The notes beneath the pieces were generated by a model. That model had not been told where the DNA came from. It saw only the letters and a list, made by a program, of their open reading frames with translations, and made no database searches. Shown one piece after another: positions 1 to 9,030 of a DNA stretch of 9,030 bases (position 1 is the first letter of the stretch; the number at the start of each line of letters is the position of its first letter). The stretch lies in IMG/VR virus record IMGVR_UViG_2667527898_000028; one strand, written 5' to 3'. Position numbers and translations under genes: made by a program. This DNA comes from a virus. Its lineage: Duplodnaviria; Heunggongvirae; Uroviricota; Caudoviricetes.

Positions 1-141
1 TTACTGCTTACACTGTAAGAACGCCGCAAACTCCGCTCCCCAGAAGCTCATCCGTATTTCACACAGCGAACCGTGTAGCATCCAGATGATGAGGATTACC
101 GTCACGCAGAACGTGATGGCCGTAAGCGATTTTTGCGACAT
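1..141 (-). CDS. Hok/Gef-family-like type I toxin, small membrane peptide (46 aa)
   Basis: Minus-strand ATG at 141..139 and TAA at 3..1 give MSQKSLTAITFCVTVILIIWMLHGSLCEIRMSFWGAEFAAFLQCKQ. This is a hydrophobic helix followed by SLCEIR and E-x-AAF, the layout I recognise from Hok/Gef/PndA toxins. GGAG sits about 8 nt upstream of the ATG. It is below the ORF-track size cutoff, and the window starts exactly on its stop codon. Family call is from motif memory, not a search. Confidence 0.5.
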   Translation of the reverse strand: MSQKSLTAITFCVTVILIIWMLHGSLCEIRMSFWGAEFAAFLQCKQ

Positions 142-202
142 AGCGCTTGCTCCTTTGTTGGAGAGGCGCTAACCTATCACTTGCTTAAGGTAGATATGTT
201 AG

Positions 203-238
203 GGCCTCGGTTAAACAGAAATGTTTTCCGGGGCCTTT
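203..238. other. Imperfect ~13-bp hairpin with GAAA loop, followed by TTT on the plus strand; candidate regulatory or terminator structure between ogr and the hok-like ORF
   Basis: GGCCTCGG-tt-AAACA-GAAA-TGTTT-t-CCGGGGCC: outer arms 203..210 / 228..235 (one G-U pair), inner arms 213..217 / 222..226. Followed by TTTCC on the plus strand. It lies in the 5' leader of the hok-like ORF, antisense to it. Confidence 0.3.
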
Positions 239-332
239 CCACATCTGGCCTTCGGGTATTCCCTCCGACCATCAGCCGAAAGGCACCCGCGCGTAATCTA
301 TCGCTTTTTTGTTACTCCGGCAATTCTGCCTG

Positions 333-593
333 TTAATTCTGAGGTAAAGGCAAACTCATCTGATTGTTTCCCCTGTGTGAAGCTGGCAGCTCATGCCACG
401 GGATACCTTCTGAAGAGTGAACGCCGGAGGTGTGTTTTGATGTGAATTTATGGAAAGCTTCCAGTGTTGAGAAGCATACGCCGCATTCCAGGTTGTTACA
501 CTGGTAATACTTTTGCCGCACGGTGTTTGAATCATTTTCAGGACGACTGGTGCGGATACGGGCAGATGCGCCACAAAGCGGACAACGGAACAT
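333..593 (-). CDS. ogr: Ogr/Delta-family zinc-finger late-gene transcription activator
   Basis: 86-aa ORF beginning MFRCPLCGASARIRTSR, with a C-x2-C ... C-x4-C cysteine arrangement (C4, C7, C32, C37) typical of P2 Ogr / 186 B / P4 Delta. AGGGAGG sits about 5 nt upstream of the ATG at 593. It lies immediately downstream of D on the same strand, as in P2. Confidence 0.8.
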   Translation of the reverse strand: MFRCPLCGASARIRTSRPENDSNTVRQKYYQCNNLECGVCFSTLEAFHKFTSKHTSGVHSSEGIPWHELPASHRGNNQMSLPLPQN

Positions 594-635: not shown

Positions 636-1745
636 TCACTCTGTTTCTGCTATCCATTCCGAGATTTTTGCCTCAAGCTCAAGCTGCGTGGTAAAGCCGC
701 TGTTATCGATGGTGTGCTCGGCTTTTGCAATAATCCAGTCCTGATTATCAATCTCGCTTTTAAATCCTGTTACCGTGCCATGCATTTCGGGGTAGAGTTC
801 TGCACGACCACATGCCAGCGTGATGGAGAATGATGCGGCTCCGCGTTGTAGCTGCTGCCACTTTGCCGCCGCTGCGCGTCTTGCTGCCTGCTCGTTCTGA
901 TAAGTCTTGCGTAACACAAACACATTGCCTTCCGCGCCTTCCATATAATCACCTTCACGGCTGCTGCTTTTCTCCTTTTTGGGTTTTGGCGGTTTGCGGT
1001 GTTTCACGCTGACTTTTTTCTTTTTCCCGTAATTAAGATCAAGCCAGTAAGCGCGTACCCCCGTATACGCTTCGCGGTCAGCAATGCGGAACTGATGGCG
1101 ATCGCCACTGCTGCGCGTGATGGCGAACGATGGCAACGGCTGGCCCTGTGCGTTCACGCCACCGCCTGGCATAATGAATAACAGATTACCGCTTTTTACC
1201 GTGGTGATTGCGCCCAGCATTTCCGCCATGCGCGTAAGGAAGGACATGTCGCTTTCTTCGGTCTGGTCGGCGTGGTCGATTTCGATATCCATCAGCATTT
1301 CGCTGATTTGCGGTTTCAGACCATACCGATGAGCGATGGCGGATACCACACGCTCAACGGTCACATCATGCCAGGACACCTCACGTTTAACGTTAAATTC
1401 ATCCCGAAAATCTGCGCTTCTGGCTGAAACAGTCAGCCTGTCCGGCGGTCCTTCGTGAGCGATTTCATCAACAATGTAAGTGCCTTTTTCTGTCAGCGGT
1501 TCTCCTTTCCAGCCAATGAGAACCGTCAGGCGCGCGCCCCGTGGCGGTAGCTGCAACTGACCATCCGCATCATCCAGCGTGATGGTGAGCTGGTCCGCGT
1601 CAAATCCCCGGTTGTCGGTCAGTGACAGGCTCATCAGGCGCTCTGCCACGCCTGACAGCGTTTTACCCTCCGCGAGAATATCAAAATCCGGCATTTTCAC
1701 GGGGTCTGTGCCCTGACTGAGCAATTGCATGGTGGTATCGGTCAT
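636..1745 (-). CDS. D: P2 gpD-like tail protein (late control gene D family)
   Basis: ORF-track frame 636..1877. The likely true start is the internal Met (MTDTTMQLLSQG...) at about 1745, preceded by GGGAGG; the next Met at 1730 is an alternative. About 369 aa, close to P2 gpD size. Family recognised from overall sequence character and from its position beside ogr. A lysine-rich segment lies at about 960..1030. Confidence 0.85.
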   Translation of the reverse strand: MTDTTMQLLSQGTDPVKMPDFDILAEGKTLSGVAERLMSLSLTDNRGFDADQLTITLDDADGQLQLPPRGARLTVLIGWKGEPLTEKGTYIVDEIAHEGPPDRLTVSARSADFRDEFNVKREVSWHDVTVERVVSAIAHRYGLKPQISEMLMDIEIDHADQTEESDMSFLTRMAEMLGAITTVKSGNLLFIMPGGGVNAQGQPLPSFAITRSSGDRHQFRIADREAYTGVRAYWLDLNYGKKKKVSVKHRKPPKPKKEKSSSREGDYMEGAEGNVFVLRKTYQNEQAARRAAAAKWQQLQRGAASFSITLACGRAELYPEMHGTVTGFKSEIDNQDWIIAKAEHTIDNSGFTTQLELEAKISEWIAETE

Positions 1746-1902
1746 CTGTTCCCTCCCTGTGCGGCATGGTCGCATGTGCGTGCGGAGGGGGTTACTGCTT
1801 TTTGTTGTCGCCGGGTCGGGAGAACGGCGCAGGGGTGAGATTACGCGCGTGGTGGGTGATGATTGTTGCCGAATCATTTAACGGATACAAGGGGCTAAAG
1901 CT
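1746..1902. promoter_or_regulatory. Divergent intergenic region between D (minus) and FI (plus); presumed site of the late promoter for the FI operon
   Basis: 157-nt gap between divergent start codons. I could not find a convincing TGT-N12-ACA Ogr-box or a clear -10 by eye, so this is positional inference only. Confidence 0.3.
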
Positions 1903-4193: not shown

Positions 4194-6987
4194 TATCCGG
4201 GTCGCTTTCAGCGCCGTTGACAGGCTGACCCGGCCTGCCGAAAACGCCCGCCGCCTGATGGGGCAGTTTGGTGACTCCATCCAGCGAACGCAGGGGGCGA
4301 TCAAAAATCTCGAGCGTCAGGCGCGTTCATTTGAGCGCGCCCGTGACGCTGTCAGTAAAGCGGATGCTGGCATCGTGAAAGCACGACGCCAGCTTAACGC
4401 CCTTAATCAGTTACAACGCACGGGTACAGTGCTCAGCGAAAAACAACAAAAGCTGATGCAGCAGTTAAGCACCCGGCTTGAACGCCTGAATGAATCGCGC
4501 ACACGGGAAATTCAGAAAATGCGGGAGCTTGGCGGAGAGCTGAAACGCCACGGCATTTCCCTGACAGGCAGCGATAACACCATCCAGCAGGCCATCAGAC
4601 GCACCGAACAGTACAACAACCAGCTTGAACGCGAACGGCAGGCGCTTGCGCGTGTAACGCGGGCGCGTGAGCGGTATTCGCGCGCGCAGGAAACCGCGGG
4701 AAAACTGAAAACAGGTGGTGCGCTGGCAATTGGTGCTGCAGCGGCTGGCGGCTATGCTGCCGGGCGTTTTTTGCAGCCTGCGATCGGGTTCGGCAAAGAG
4801 ATGTCCCGCGTTCAGGCACTGACGCGAATCGACAAAAACAGCCCGCAGTTTAAGGCGCTGCGTGAGCAGGCGTTAAAACTTGGTTCTGAAACACAGTTTA
4901 CTGCGAGTGATGCCGCCAGTGGGCAGAGCTTTCTGGCAATGGCTGGTTTTACTCCGCAGGCCATTCAGGCCGCATTGCCCGGTGTTCTTAATATGGCGCT
5001 GGCAGGTGGCGTCGAACTCGGCGAGACGGCTGATATAGGCTCCAATATCCTCACACAGTTCAACCTGACAGCCGATCAAATGGACCGGGTTGGCGATACG
5101 CTGACAGCAGCATTCACCCGGACCAATACTGATTTACGCGCGCTGGGCGAAACCATGAAGTATACCGGTCCGGTTGCCGCAAAACTTGGTATCAGTCTTG
5201 AAGAAGCGGCGGCCATGGCCGGGATGCTTGCCAATAATGGTCTTCGCGGAAGCGATGCTGGTACGGCCATGCGCGCAAGTCTGTCCCGCCTTGCATCACC
5301 GCCAAAAGCTGCGGCTGATGCACTGAAAGAGCTGGGGGTGTCAGTTGCTGACGCCAGAGGCAAAATGCGCCCGATGGAGGATGTGCTGCTTGATCTCTAT
5401 AAGGCGACACAAAAATACGGACAGGTGGACCAGGTCTCCTTCTTCAAGGACATCGCCGGAGAAGAGGCGTTCGTTGGTTTGCAGACGCTTGTTGCGGCGG
5501 CTGGTTCAGGAGAACTGCAAAAACTGACCAGAGAATTGCAGGGGGCAAGGGGAGAGGCCGATCGCGTTGCAAAAGTAATGGCCGATAATCTTGATGGAGA
5601 CCTGAAAAATCTCGACAGCGCATGGGAAGGTCTTCGTATTCGCATCAGTGATCTGGTTGACGGTCCGCTGCGTTCTGTCACGCAGTGGCTCACGCGGGTG
5701 CTTGAAAAAATCACCTCGCTGGCGCAGGCCCATCCGGTACTGACGCGCCAGCTACTGATAGCAGGCGGTGCGTTGCTGGCAATGACTGCAACGATTGGCT
5801 CGTTGTCGCTGGTTATTGGGGTGCTTTACGGGAAGCTGGCCACCTTGCGTCTTGGTTTCGACATTCTTACCCGGTCAATGAATGTCATCAGGGTGTTGCC
5901 TGCGCTGTGGGGAATGGTGACGGGTTCTGTTTCTTTGCTGGGTGGTGCTATCGGGGCGCTGTTCAGTCCGGTTGGTCTTATCGTGGCTGCGCTTGCCGGA
6001 GCTGCCGTTCTTATCTGGAAATACTGGGATCCCATCAGGGCATTTTTTGCCGGGGTGTTCAGCGGGATTATGGAAAGGCTGACCCCGTTGCGTGAAACCT
6101 TTGAACGGTTTGGCCCTGTTTTTGACGCAATCGGAAGCGGGATCAGCCTGGTGTTTAACTGGTTTAAATCGCTGTTGTCACCGATGGAGTCCAGCAAGGA
6201 AACGCTGGATAAATGCACCAGTGCTGGCGAGATATTCGGTAACGTTCTTGGCGGTGCGTTACAACTTGTTCTGACGCCTGCAAAAATGCTACTGGATACG
6301 CTGGCGTGGATACTTGAAAAACTTGGCGTCCTTCCGGATGAAGCGGAAAGGGCGCGCAAGAAAATCGAAGACGCACAGCGTGCGGCCATTCTTCAGGACA
6401 AGGTTGCCTTGCTTCAGGGGGACCTGGCGAAAATCAATCCGCCGAAGCCTGTGGAAAATGGCAATGGCACCGGAGGTGATAAACCCAAAGACAACAAACC
6501 GCTCACAGACAGCAATACCGGTACGCTACGCAGACTCAGCAAAATTGCTGATAACACAGGTAAGCTGGTTGATGAGACGAAAAAACGCATTGGCCCCGGC
6601 GATATTGTCTTTAAGAATCTGCCCCGCGCACTTGCTGTTCGTGGGGAGTGGCAGGAGCGGAAGATTGCGCAGGTCAGTAAGCCTGCTTCCGCAATCAACA
6701 TCACACCCGTGGTCCCGACTCCTCTGCCTCTGGCGCTGGTCCCTGTTGTTGCGGCCAGCTCCCGCCCGGTGGCGGAGGCCATACGATCGCCAGTGGCATC
6801 AGTTCCTGCAACTTCCCGTAACCGGGAGCCTGTTGTCTCCGGATTTGGCGGTGAAATTCATGTTCATCTGCATAACGTTGTTACGCAGAATCCCCGCGAA
6901 CTGGCGAAACTGGTCGGTGAAATGGTCAGGGCAGAATTGGAACGACGCGACCGTGCCGGACGTGGCAGTTTTTACGATAAAGATTGA
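4171..6987 (+). CDS. T: Tail tape measure protein (P2 gpT-like)
   Basis: 938 aa. N-terminal charged and predicted coiled-coil region, central tape-measure core (AMAGFTPQAIQAALPGVLNMALAGG ... MKYTGPVAAKLGISLEEAAAMAGMLANNGLRGSDAGTAMRASLSRL), hydrophobic helices at about aa 520-620, and a Pro/Lys-rich C-terminus. An alternative start is ATG 4180. The start overlaps the end of the E' frame. Confidence 0.9.
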   Translation: MQIMKTLDIRVAFSAVDRLTRPAENARRLMGQFGDSIQRTQGAIKNLERQARSFERARDAVSKADAGIVKARRQLNALNQLQRTGTVLSEKQQKLMQQLSTRLERLNESRTREIQKMRELGGELKRHGISLTGSDNTIQQAIRRTEQYNNQLERERQALARVTRARERYSRAQETAGKLKTGGALAIGAAAAGGYAAGRFLQPAIGFGKEMSRVQALTRIDKNSPQFKALREQALKLGSETQFTASDAASGQSFLAMAGFTPQAIQAALPGVLNMALAGGVELGETADIGSNILTQFNLTADQMDRVGDTLTAAFTRTNTDLRALGETMKYTGPVAAKLGISLEEAAAMAGMLANNGLRGSDAGTAMRASLSRLASPPKAAADALKELGVSVADARGKMRPMEDVLLDLYKATQKYGQVDQVSFFKDIAGEEAFVGLQTLVAAAGSGELQKLTRELQGARGEADRVAKVMADNLDGDLKNLDSAWEGLRIRISDLVDGPLRSVTQWLTRVLEKITSLAQAHPVLTRQLLIAGGALLAMTATIGSLSLVIGVLYGKLATLRLGFDILTRSMNVIRVLPALWGMVTGSVSLLGGAIGALFSPVGLIVAALAGAAVLIWKYWDPIRAFFAGVFSGIMERLTPLRETFERFGPVFDAIGSGISLVFNWFKSLLSPMESSKETLDKCTSAGEIFGNVLGGALQLVLTPAKMLLDTLAWILEKLGVLPDEAERARKKIEDAQRAAILQDKVALLQGDLAKINPPKPVENGNGTGGDKPKDNKPLTDSNTGTLRRLSKIADNTGKLVDETKKRIGPGDIVFKNLPRALAVRGEWQERKIAQVSKPASAINITPVVPTPLPLALVPVVAASSRPVAEAIRSPVASVPATSRNREPVVSGFGGEIHVHLHNVVTQNPRELAKLVGEMVRAELERRDRAGRGSFYDKD

Positions 6988-6999
6988 GGAGTCATGGCC

Positions 7000-7488
7000 A
7001 TGATGATGATCTACGGCATGTTTGTTTTTGAGCTGCGCACATTGCCGCATCAGCAGTTACAGCAAAACAAAAGCTGGCGGTATGTGAAAAATGAACGCGT
7101 TAACCGTTCAGCAAGCTGGCAGTATATCGGCGCAGGTGATGATCGCATCGTGCTTTCCGGCGTGCTTTATCCTGAAATTACAGGTGGCGAAGTGTCGCTT
7201 TCATTGCTGACCACGCAGGCATATACAGGACGGCCCTGGCCTCTGATTGATGGTGTCGGGCAGATTTACGGCATGTATGTACTGACTGAAACGAATACGA
7301 CCCGTTCCGAGTTTGATCGCTACGGTAAGGCGAAAAAGATAGAATTTTCACTGACTCTTGAACGCTGTGATGAGGATTTGCGGGAGCGCCTGCAATCCTC
7401 ATCGTTCAGCGATATGTTGTCCGGCTTCAAAGATAAGGTGACATCATCCCTTAATAGCGCGGCCAGCTCAGTTAAGGGGCTGCTCTGA
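7000..7488 (+). CDS. U: Tail protein gpU-like
   Basis: ORF-track frame 6994..7488. GGAG at 6988..6991 is too close to ATG 6994 but about 8 nt from ATG 7000 (MMMIYGMFVFEL...). Size and position after T match P2 gpU. Confidence 0.85.
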   Translation: MMMIYGMFVFELRTLPHQQLQQNKSWRYVKNERVNRSASWQYIGAGDDRIVLSGVLYPEITGGEVSLSLLTTQAYTGRPWPLIDGVGQIYGMYVLTETNTTRSEFDRYGKAKKIEFSLTLERCDEDLRERLQSSSFSDMLSGFKDKVTSSLNSAASSVKGLL

Positions 7489-7564
7489 TTTAACGTATGT
7501 CGCCAATTTCCTGATGAAGGTGACTGGCGACTTGCTGTTGTATGTCCTTCTCAGAAAATTGTTT

Positions 7565-7593
7565 TTGAATAATAAACAACAGGATTTTATAAT
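7565..7593 (+). promoter_or_regulatory. Near-consensus sigma70 promoter for the acetyltransferase cargo gene
   Basis: TTGAAT (7565..7570), 17-nt spacer, TATAAT (7588..7593), in an AT-rich context about 50 nt upstream of the RBS. Confidence 0.45.
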
Positions 7594-7644
7594 CTCTTAA
7601 CCTTATAACATGTGTGGTCTGAAATAATAATTAAGGAGATTATC

Positions 7645-8217
7645 GTGCTGTCTTACCTAATGGCAATTCACTTTGTTTTATTTGGGAACTCTACTAATTT
7701 AAAAAACTTCTGGAAACATGAAGTAATTCGGCGGAAACGTATGGATATCTGGAGGCTTTTAAGAGAGAAAAAGCAGCGTAACAGGAATTTCCTTTTCTGG
7801 TGGCGGTTGGCTAACGAAATGTATATTAATGGTAATAAATTACATAAGAAAGCTGCTAAAAAGTTAAACAATAAAATAATTAACAATTTTGGTTGCGAGA
7901 TTGGACTGGGCGCAAAAATTGGAAAAGGGCTAACAATTCCCCATCACGCTGGAATTGTTGTTCATTTTGCTGTTGATGCTGGTGAAAATCTGGTGTTACG
8001 ACAGAATACTACTATTGGACAGATAGATGGTGACATACCTGGTTCAAGAGTAAAAATTGGTAGTAACGTTGATATCGGAGCTAATTGTTGCATCATTGGA
8101 TTATCTCGTAAAATTGGGGATAATGTAAAAATAGGCGCAATGTCTTTTATAAATAAAGATATACCATCGAACTGCACATATATAACTAAAAAGAACGGTG
8201 TTGTTTTGTATAAATAG
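7645..8217 (+). CDS. Hexapeptide-repeat (left-handed beta-helix) O-acetyltransferase, WcaB / serine-acetyltransferase-like
   Basis: The ORF-track frame starts at GTG 7612. GTG 7645 is preferred because AAGGAG sits 6 nt upstream; ATG 7660 is an alternative. The C-terminal half carries imperfect hexapeptide repeats (GAKIGKGLTIPHHAGIVV, TTIGQIDGDIPGSRVKIGSNVDIGANCCIIG, IGDNVKIGAMSFI) after a basic helical N-terminal part, as in WcaB/CysE-type acetyltransferases. Codon usage is strongly AT-rich compared with the tail genes. Confidence 0.85.
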   Translation: MLSYLMAIHFVLFGNSTNLKNFWKHEVIRRKRMDIWRLLREKKQRNRNFLFWWRLANEMYINGNKLHKKAAKKLNNKIINNFGCEIGLGAKIGKGLTIPHHAGIVVHFAVDAGENLVLRQNTTIGQIDGDIPGSRVKIGSNVDIGANCCIIGLSRKIGDNVKIGAMSFINKDIPSNCTYITKKNGVVLYK

Positions 8218-8227
8218 AGCACATAAA

Positions 8228-8262
8228 GCCATCGATATTTCTATCGATGGCTTTTTCTTTTT
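8228..8262. terminator. Rho-independent terminator between convergent genes, probably bidirectional
   Basis: Perfect 10-bp stem GCCATCGATA / TATCGATGGC with TTTC loop, followed by TTTTTCTTTTT on the plus strand. It sits between the acetyltransferase stop (8217) and the tfa stop (8261..8263). Confidence 0.75.
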
Positions 8263-8754
8263 ATTGTGGGGCGACTGGCCACTCAATATCTGCTGCTACT
8301 GTTGTATCAACACGATGCAACAATACTCGATATGTCTTCCATGCAGCCAGTAACGATGTCTCTTCCTCCGTCGCAATATCTAAATCTATAGCATCCTGAA
8401 GTGGTGCAATATGCTCACTGGCTACCTGCATCAGGCTGTTTTTTGTTTCTTCCGCCTCCCTTATCCGAAATAGTTTTTCTGCTTCTGCATCTTTCACCCA
8501 GGATGTGCCGTTCCACTTCTGATACTCTCCATACGGCGACAACCAGGTAACATTTTCCGGTAACGGACCGAGTTCAGAAATAAATAACGAGTCCCCTGAT
8601 GCCACGTCATAAACCGTTTTACCCCGATGGTCTTCAACGAGATGCCACGATGCCTCATCACTGTTGAAAACAACCACGAAGCCAGCCGGAATATCTGGGC
8701 AATATCAGTACTGTTTGCAGGCAAACCTGTATGAAGTGGAATGGCACAAGAGAC
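8261..8754 (-). pseudogene. Tail fibre assembly protein (Tfa/gpG family), frameshifted and 5'-truncated
   Basis: The C-terminal part (ORF 8261..8677) ends ...[26 protein letters not shown], the conserved Tfa C-terminus. Upstream, the homology continues in another frame (ORF 8494..8724, ...[12 protein letters not shown]) and switches frame at about 8696..8700, in a C-run, to ...[18 protein letters not shown]. The open frame ends at a stop at 8755..8757, so the usual N-terminal 30-40 aa are absent. Confidence 0.7.
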
Positions 8755-9030
8755 TTACAAAAGAATCAGGCAAAACGCCTGATTGATGAGAGCCCCGAAC
8801 TACTGAAATCTGTCGTCAAATTTGCGCTGGTAACTGTTCTGAGAAAGTCGAACATCATAAATCTGGAGTGGCAACAGATTGACATGCAGCGACAAGTTGC
8901 CAGGGTGAATCCAGAAGATAGCAAATCAAACCGCGCCATTGGTGTGGCGCTGAACGATACCGCCTCTAAAGTGTTGCGTGATCAAACAGGCAAGCATCAC
9001 AAATGTGGGTGTACATACCAGGGCGGCTAA
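8731..9030 (+). pseudogene. Tyrosine-integrase fragment (start of the catalytic domain only)
   Basis: 99-aa ORF containing [47 protein letters not shown], the Arg-box / L-x-W-x-x-I-D region at the start of phage integrase catalytic domains. It lacks the N-terminal DNA-binding part and the downstream H-x-x-R ... Y catalytic residues, and ends ...[12 protein letters not shown] at a stop at the window edge. Confidence 0.6.

Follow-up and report, generated by a model that had tools for sequence, protein, structure and literature searches.

A probable hok/sok-type toxin-antitoxin locus without a mok frame next to ogr in P88-like Escherichia coli prophages

What gene lies beyond ogr at one end of P88-like prophages, and how would its expression be controlled? 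The question is raised by a 9,030-nucleotide stretch of caudoviral DNA (IMG/VR record IMGVR_UViG_2667527898_000028), here called the window, with coordinates counted from its first base. A preliminary description, made from the letters alone, had proposed that positions 1 to 332 contain a toxin gene of the Hok/Gef type, preceded by a leader-like gap where a hok/sok locus would have its regulatory parts. The analysis reported here makes it probable that 1..332 (minus strand) belongs to a type I toxin-antitoxin locus of the hok/sok kind, of which it holds the promoter, the leader and the coding region. In P88-like (P2-related) E. coli prophages (Xuanwuvirus, Peduoviridae), this locus immediately follows ogr, far from the integrase at the other prophage end.

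The hok coding sequence, delimited by the open reading frame list and supported by Pfam and PHROG matches and by dN/dS, occupies 1..141 (minus strand) and consists of 46 codons and a stop codon (3..1). Its translation, MSQKSLTAITFCVTVILIIWMLHGSLCEIRMSFWGAEFAAFLQCKQ, contains in order a single hydrophobic stretch, SLCEIR and AEFAAF, as read from the sequence. The peptide has the layout of about 50 residues with one N-terminal transmembrane helix, and its residues C27, E28, R30, A39 and A40 are unchanged across 10 diverse Hok/Gef family members. A Shine-Dalgarno (SD) sequence, AAGGAG (150..155, minus strand), stands 8 nt 5' of the ATG, and its AGGAG is present in all 18 aligned relatives. The upstream neighbour is ogr (333..593, minus strand, 86 codons; Pfam Ogr_Delta, 52.4 bits), the end of which is separated from hok by 191 nt on the same strand. 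The preliminary description had given the gene as a 46-residue minus-strand frame with a helix, SLCEIR and an AAF end, preceded by an SD and following ogr on the same strand after a gap of about 190 nt, and the frame list, the sequence reading and the measured distance all agree with it.

A search with the Hok/Gef profile, the first check proposed for this gene, was passed, with a match to Pfam HOK_GEF (PF01848) at 30.1 bits (E = 3.7e-7, gathering score 22) that aligns peptide residues 7-44 with profile positions 5-42 of 42. PHROG 251 matches the peptide at 82.8 bits. Scores below the cutoffs were obtained with the NCBIfam Hok family toxin model NF007279 (23.6 bits, cutoff 73) and the HokA equivalog NF007290 (35.8 bits, cutoff 89), which explains the generic name ‘Hok/Gef family protein’ in RefSeq. 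Judged by its sequence, the product is a true but divergent Hok.

The gene itself is already known. At least 1000 public contigs encode the identical peptide, annotated there as Hok/Gef family protein or HokA, and it is also gp52 of Escherichia phage P88, the record of which names it ‘MokW-like host killing; hok/gef family protein’. Escalera-Maurer et al., in their Hok catalogue of 2025-26 (bioRxiv 10.1101/2025.08.07.668861), list this peptide in cluster 72 as unique sequence #1628. Since RefSeq, the P88 phage record, PHROGs and this catalogue hold the exact peptide, the reading frame adds nothing as a gene call. The PHROG label ‘MokW-like’ is a misnomer, the protein being a Hok and not a Mok. 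The preprint's table of cloned constructs includes the V15A variant 72_1621, the Stx-phage variant 72_1589 and the island variant 82_1289, all for an arabinose toxicity assay in which the cluster-72 constructs carried their own SD. In its text, 42 of the 45 constructs are given as toxic, the exceptions being 19_179, 60_1482 and 69_1540, and from this list of non-toxic constructs we infer that those of cluster 72, including the one-residue variant 72_1621, were toxic. The catalogue deals with coding sequences only, and Mok, Sok and the mRNA ends lie outside its authors' analysis.

The hok frame is under purifying selection. It is kept in homologous loci, a point on which the proposed toxin assignment had been made to depend, with a length of exactly 46 codons in 36 of 36 distinct coding sequences, a median dN/dS of 0.19 and values below 1 in 589 of 589 pairs. 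The first base of the window is the end of the hok stop codon, and the 3' untranslated region is absent from it. The same end base is found in 22 of 80 IMG/VR loci, which suggests a cut at the gene boundary by the prophage caller. Prophage callers appear to halve the locus at the hok stop codon.

The probable hok mRNA leader extends over 142..288 (minus strand), with a predicted 5' end at 288 (GGGUGCCUUUC). Rfam RF01794 matches 288..131 (minus strand) from end to end at 47.9 bits (E = 1.7e-8), below its gathering score of 59, in line with the earlier view of the gap as leader-like. This Rfam model carries the name ‘sok’; it represents the hok leader in sense orientation, because the consensus opens in the manner of an R1-type hok mRNA and finishes with the AUG. 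The leader is nearly invariant in relatives with unrelated upstream flanks, and in aligned copies it is more conserved than the coding region. A hok promoter is predicted at 295..323 (minus strand), consisting of TTGCCG (323..318), a 17-nt spacer and TAGATT (300..295), followed after 6 nt by the G at 288. In the relatives, a TTGC-type -35 and a TA[ACG]A[TG]T -10 stand in register 5' of a conserved GGGUGCC, and the DNA further upstream is unrelated.

A second predicted promoter, that of the antisense RNA Sok, lies at 147..175 (plus strand), with TTGCTC (147..152) over the hok SD on the other strand, a 17-nt spacer and TAACCT (170..175). The mRNA-strand sequence AGGTTAGCGCC is almost invariant, and its opposite strand reads TAACCT at 17-18 nt after TTGCTC or TTGACT, overlapping the hok SD; the TTGACT form of the -35 is found in relatives with GGAGTCAAG. 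The complement of the -10, AGGTTA, is present in 46 of 47 distinct leaders, the remaining one having AGATTA (TAATCT), and an R1-type plasmid locus reads TTGCGC-17-TATCCT at the same positions. TAACCT matches the -10 consensus at 3 of 6 positions, and the predicted hok promoter scores 8/12; a consensus promoter scan with a threshold of 9/12 listed neither of the two, both being below it, and both proposals rest on the conservation of hexamers in register.

From this second promoter, a Sok-like antisense RNA of about 59 nt (182..240, plus strand) is predicted, with a single-stranded 5' tail, a hairpin (201..236) and a final UUUCC, the ends being placed by the promoter position and the hairpin. 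The fold of 180..250 (plus strand) has -29.7 kcal/mol (z = -4.6). The antisense sok that had been expected in the gap is present as a prediction, based on the conserved promoter-like site TTGCTC-17-TAACCT and this hairpin.

The stretch 182..197 (mRNA +92..+107), which would provide both the 5' tail of Sok and its target, is hypervariable. Variability was calculated over 85 units sharing the first 14 residues of the window peptide, nearly all of which encode that peptide or its V15A variant, and which reduce to 43 distinct sequences. The mean pairwise difference peaks at 0.33 over mRNA +96..+105 and is 0.15 in the preceding 10 nt; elsewhere it is at most 0.05 over most of the unit, with 0.14-0.20 in two hairpin loops and 0.11-0.16 in the flank upstream of the promoter. 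Two natural variants of the 16-nt block are ATATCTACCTTAA and CGCATTACCTTGA. Counted from the antisense -10, the predicted Sok RNA would have this block as its initial 15-20 nt, and the mRNA would have it as the target. In R1, the corresponding first stretch of Sok is the recognition tail. We read the block as a diversification of antisense specificity, and recombination between variants could give the same pattern.

The sequence 3' of hok was read from strain B1-56 (locus L001), which is identical to the window over the shared part. The hok stop codon is followed there by a G+C-rich hairpin, the box GAAGUGGCACCC and a terminator-like hairpin with a U run, in that order. The box, a candidate fbi element, is complementary to the predicted 5' end (window 288..278). 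In identical loci, the fbi element and the terminator lie 54-115 nt past the window edge, and the earlier expectation that fbi would be found outside the window was correct. A terminator scan of L001 5400-6700 found no terminator-like site between ogr and hok on the hok strand.

The first 2 kb of the window is 99.8% identical to many E. coli chromosomes, in which RefSeq annotates a ‘Hok/Gef family protein’ after ogr and gene D, and at least 80% of this stretch is present in 902 of 5,426 complete E. coli genomes. The same arrangement is present at 97-98% identity in free Xuanwuvirus phages (Peduoviridae), for example Escherichia phage P88. Strain B1-56 contains a complete prophage of about 35 kb between 124-bp att repeats (the tRNA-Leu 3' end and the integrase-side copy), with a full set of structural and lysis genes, ParM/ParR-like genes, and hok at the end opposite the integrase. 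The preliminary description had considered a degraded P2-like remnant as the carrier, but P88 and this complete prophage are arranged in the same way, and none of the window's tail genes is broken. The right end of the window is an odd junction (about 8640-8743), which may be a mis-assembly or a real recombination at the tail-fibre assembly gene, so the window's own element may still be a remnant.

A 461-nt unit containing the locus is matched in 1,756 of the 5,426 complete E. coli genomes, with up to 9 copies per genome and identities of 73-100%. It is found in P88-like prophages, in lambdoid phages including Stx phages, downstream of lom or J, in the O157:H7 urease island, in an ICE-like region, on IncI1 and IncF plasmids, and in tandem arrays beside serS. 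The unit also has a 99% identical copy in a 34-kb ‘plasmid’ record. A search of species-representative genomes gave 6 loci, three of them on contigs of unrelated assemblies that are probably contaminating E. coli sequence and the others in Escherichia and Salmonella, so that the range of the lineage seems limited to Escherichia, Salmonella and Citrobacter.

With regard to biological role, the most likely reading is selfish retention of the prophage through post-segregational killing after its loss, perhaps with some help to lysis on induction. Late read-through from ogr into hok, against the Sok promoter, is conceivable because of the lack of a terminator-like site between the two genes.

A stronger form of this idea takes lysis and phage release on induction as the main role, with late D-ogr transcription running into hok, a fall in Sok, and membrane damage by Hok before the holin acts. 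The hokW-sokW locus of the Stx2 prophage Sp5 behaves in this manner: mitomycin C treatment makes sokW disappear, HokW precedes the endolysin by about 1 h, and phage yield is halved without hokW-sokW (PMC8621323). In the present locus, ogr and hok have no terminator-like site between them, and the two transcription units would converge on the Sok promoter. However, the HokW studied is another paralogue of 51 residues, and copies of the present type are also carried by plasmids and islands without a lysis programme, so that lysis as the main role appears unlikely, if worth keeping in mind.

Less probable still is an abortive-infection or phage-exclusion module protecting the lysogen from other phages. 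R1 hok/sok reportedly excludes T4. In the catalogue preprint, hok genes are about four-fold enriched in prophages, which favours such a role, but they are not enriched near defence systems (bioRxiv 10.1101/2025.08.07.668861), and a search of PADLOC-DB 2.0 with the hok peptide returned no family at E up to 1.

RNA folding gives candidate states for a silent and an activated mRNA. In the 405-nt L001 transcript (from 288 to the terminator), nt 1-15 pair with the 3' end in the MFE structure (-178.1 kcal/mol, z = -8.1), the tac-like 5' element (274..288, minus strand) pairing with fbi outside the window. Alignment columns 1-6 and 362-367 (tac/fbi) are 100% paired in 18 relatives, and invariant. The ucb-like box GUGGAAAGGCCCC (230..242, minus strand) pairs in the RNAalifold consensus either with tac or with GAGGCC at 204..209. 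The pairing of ucb with tac, which the preliminary description had suggested looking for in the leader fold, is predicted, and it is 99.5% kept across the 18 relatives in invariant sequence. The predicted Sok-target hairpin is formed from the 5' arm GAGGCCCUAAC (198..208, minus strand), which includes the GAGG used in R1 as the mok SD, and the 3' arm GGUUAGCGCCUC (163..174, minus strand), which overlaps the anti-SD and, on the opposite strand, the Sok -10 hexamer. RNAalifold pairs the two arms, which are 96.7% paired in relatives, and pairwise diversity is 0.000 over mRNA +116..+125 in the 3' arm.

The hok SD itself is predicted to pair with an upstream anti-SD, GCGCCUCUCC, in a hairpin (142..172, minus strand) of -14.0 kcal/mol when folded alone. 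This SD hairpin is 96.5% paired (as alignment cells) across the 18 relatives, with one-sided changes only, and is retained in the MFE structure of both the full-length and the truncated window-type RNA. MFE folding was rejected as proof of an open SD, as the MFE structure keeps the hairpin and only a near-isoenergetic conformer opens the SD. In that predicted conformer, the target hairpin borrows the anti-SD arm and the large SD hairpin is replaced by a 3-bp helix; it lies 0.9 kcal/mol above the MFE of the 3'-truncated window RNA and is itself the MFE in 11 of the 18 relatives. When nt 50-109 are blocked in folding, mimicking bound Sok, the SD hairpin re-forms. Any direct relay between the target hairpin and the SD would depend on small energy differences, because part of the hok SD is paired in every predicted conformer.

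The closed-state structure, comprising tac-fbi, the hairpin mirroring Sok, the SD hairpin, the coding-region helices and the 3' hairpin, was scored on 18 full units. Standard pairs make up 94.1% of its cells, compared with 38-45% when the partners are slid. Its covariation score is 0.171 against 0.121 in shuffles, and 0 of 500 shuffles reach that value, a result that is supportive and not proof because relatedness alone can exceed a shuffle control. Two-sided changes are found in the 3' hairpin (304/328, 305/327 and 311/321) and in the coding-region helices (169/259, 176/196 and 177/195). For tac/fbi, tac/ucb and the target hairpin, covariation is uninformative because the arms are almost invariant (97-100% paired). 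The conserved 3' stem-loop, with its three compensatory pairs, could by this model stop an exonuclease.

Missing from this set of elements is mok. In R1, translation of mok up to the hok SD is mandatory (PMC9841398), and the preliminary description had expected a mok frame in the gap. Every frame of the window is stopped between mRNA +100 and the hok SD, by TAA, TGA and TAG, and even with near-cognate starts permitted no reading frame of the window-type leader runs through to that SD. Among 47 distinct leaders, 30 lack a canonical-start frame reaching the hok SD and 17 have one; none is conserved. No variant has an ATG, GTG or TTG at a usable distance after the conserved GAGG (204..207). A 31-residue frame at 177..272 (minus strand) was considered as a mok analogue and rejected: it has no SD, is not conserved as a reading frame and stops 36 nt short of the hok ATG, and its start codon, the sole ATG upstream (272), falls within tac at a distance of 16 nt from the mRNA 5' end, several relatives having ACG instead. 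Nor is the frame constant among R1-type plasmids, since one IncFII plasmid encoding the R1 Hok has a leader ATG in frame with hok, which is not in the mok frame. As mok is mandatory in R1 and absent here, the lineage of the 46-residue Hok departs from the paradigm.

How such a locus might work can be outlined by analogy with R1. The hok mRNA would start at 288, and its full-length form would fold 5' to 3' and be inert, with tac paired to fbi, ucb paired to GAGGCC, and the hok SD inside the -14 kcal/mol hairpin. Slow trimming of the 3' end would release the tac box to pair with ucb, and this pairing would free the 5' arm of the target hairpin to join its 3' arm. A Sok-like RNA of about 60 nt would then pair through its 5' tail with the hypervariable block, and the resulting duplex would lead to mRNA decay, as in R1. 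Without mok, control would act directly on the SD hairpin, an RNA relay replacing the coupling through mok translation: the 3' arm of the target hairpin being the anti-SD, formation of this hairpin would loosen the SD, and Sok binding would return the anti-SD to it. Alternatively, the single-stranded block may serve as a ribosome-standby site.

On this basis, we tentatively propose a naturally mok-independent hok/sok design, in which a 3'-processing switch acts straight on the SD hairpin. In the same proposal, the 16-nt block of Sok tail and target is under diversifying selection that keeps the copies sharing a cell (up to 9 per genome, on prophages, islands and plasmids) orthogonal, like the incompatibility determinants of antisense-controlled plasmids. 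This proposal is a possible reading, held with less than even confidence and well below that placed in the identity of the locus.

A different consequence of the missing mok would be a silenced relic, with an intact Hok peptide and an SD hairpin that is never opened, the locus being inert cargo heading to decay. The R1 requirement for mok translation cited above points in this direction, as do the strength of the SD hairpin and its persistence in the MFE structure of full-length and truncated RNA, and decayed copies do exist (L001 5199-5298, a second copy in L008 with an ATA start, and L015 with an early stop). Without mok, the native transcript might give no Hok whatsoever. Against decay stand the purifying selection and uniform 46-codon length described above. 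The promoter-like sites of both strands are also retained, as are the leader and the 3' hairpin, in which compensatory changes are found. Moreover, the same mok-less design recurs across P88-like and Stx/lambdoid phages, islands and plasmids, and the concentration of variation in the Sok/target block implies selection on the antisense interaction. The relic reading is accordingly given a small probability. The weakest alternative, a canonical R1-like hok/mok/sok locus in which a mok frame in 142..332 is translated and opens the hok SD, could appeal to the conserved GAGG and to the 17 leaders with a frame reading into hok, but is very improbable given the closed frames of the window, the lack in every variant of a start codon suitably spaced after GAGG, and a sole upstream ATG that has no SD, is ACG in several relatives and opens a frame stopping 36 nt short.

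Apart from mok, the locus as predicted here has much in common with R1 hok/mok/sok (parB): a small Hok/Gef toxin, a 5' tac complementary to a 3' fbi, a ucb box, a target hairpin containing GAGG, a putatively protective 3' stem-loop, a sequestered hok SD, and a candidate antisense promoter whose -35 lies opposite the hok SD, the -10 being part of a conserved AGG(A/T)TAGC motif. It differs in having no mok frame, a leader to the ATG of 147 nt compared with 168 nt in R1 (about 21 nt shorter), a toxin of 46 instead of 52 residues, and a prophage instead of a plasmid as carrier. Pairwise MAFFT alignment of R1-type and window-type units was set aside for mapping the elements base by base, the identity being too low.

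R1 is the textbook type I toxin-antitoxin system with a mandatory mok, while the present lineage, found in about one third of the complete genomes of E. coli, has lost mok but retains the predicted Sok promoter, target hairpin and tac, ucb and fbi boxes. If active, the lineage would be a natural test case for a Hok switched on by RNA refolding alone, and its hypervariable recognition block a ready-made set of orthogonal antisense pairs. The mok-less regulation and the hypervariable block are the only points that go beyond the known gene.

The databases' name ‘MokW-like’ for the present family, a misleading label, recalls hokW-sokW of Sakai prophage 5. Identity with that locus was rejected: HokW has 51 residues and its cloning primer encodes MKQQKAM (PMC8621323). 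The HokW leader begins GCGGGTGCTTGAGGC, and in Stx phages the 46-residue type sits elsewhere, after lom.

A resemblance in working only is seen with the E. coli tisB/istR-1 system, the toxin and RNAs of which are unrelated to those of the present locus; both would have an SD locked in structure, no leader reading frame and an upstream antisense target. In tisB/istR-1, the toxin SD is structured, and the target of the antisense RNA is not this SD but an unstructured region 5' of it. In the present locus, the predicted antisense target precedes the SD by about 30-45 nt (+92..+107 compared with +134).

Because the contig ends exactly 3 nt past the hok ORF in 22 of 80 IMG/VR viral contigs (L028, L033, L036 and 19 others), a shared end that is also the window's own boundary, the hok 3' UTR, including the fbi element and terminator, is routinely lost through prophage boundary calling.

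In the matching locus of E. coli strain B1-56 (L001), the same prophage contains a second, decayed hok unit (5199..5298) between hok and attL, approximately 700-800 nt past the left end of the window. Its leader is 72% identical, and is fused to the SLCEIR codons through an internal deletion. Tandem arrays of two to three diverged hok units, spaced approximately 470 nt apart, are present in three other loci (L014 561..1933, L016 779..1871 and L008 527..2945). These arrays adjoin serS, another P2-like attachment region, suggesting that hok units accumulate at prophage ends or att sites. The P88-like prophage (L017) contains genes for ParM and a partition protein (18911..20186), and a 34.5 kb record filed as a plasmid (NZ_CP148288.1, hit H96) shows 99.1% identity over the hok unit, hinting at an episomal stage for which a killer module would be a logical fit.

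Three assemblies, labelled Planococcaceae MAG, Vagococcus sp. and Xanthomonas pisi (L018, L019 and L022), also contain hok units, which share 74-100% identity with the E. coli type and most likely lie on contaminating enterobacterial contigs. The IncFII plasmid NZ_CP128973.1 contains an R1-type hok/sok locus encoding the R1 Hok protein (L104 233..560), in which the Sok-target region differs in length by 1 nt, and this shift places the leader ATG in the hok frame, not the mok frame. The RefSeq call for this locus is a Hok of only 33 codons.

At the right end of the window (8640..9030), the P88-type tail region abuts a tail-fibre-assembly fragment and an integrase fragment (Phage_integrase match in ORF 8731..9030), which elsewhere adjoin tRNA-Arg and ompT, as a DLP12-type remnant. 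For window 7400..9030, coverage past approximately 8743 was not found in any complete E. coli genome, and the junction reflects either mis-assembly or recombination inside the repeated tail-fibre assembly gene. The tail-fibre assembly protein is encoded by ORF 8261..8677 on the minus strand (Pfam Caudo_TAP, 140.6 bits). A strong match to the Rfam IS009 'sRNA' (177 bits, 8298..8496, minus strand) lies entirely within this ORF, and what the IS009 family models seems to be prophage tfa sequence, either coding or pseudogene. A hexapeptide-repeat acetyltransferase gene (7612..8217, plus strand), annotated in relatives as serine acetyltransferase, is an insertion separating gpU from the tail-fibre assembly gene and has the look of a moron. 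The weak Qrr match spanning 8140..8260 probably represents no more than the terminator of this acetyltransferase gene. Gene D (minus strand) was called mechanically as an ORF of 413 codons (636..1877), but is annotated in relatives at approximately 366-369 codons, corresponding to window positions of approximately 636..1745, and the upstream part of the longer ORF overlaps the divergent tail-sheath promoter region.
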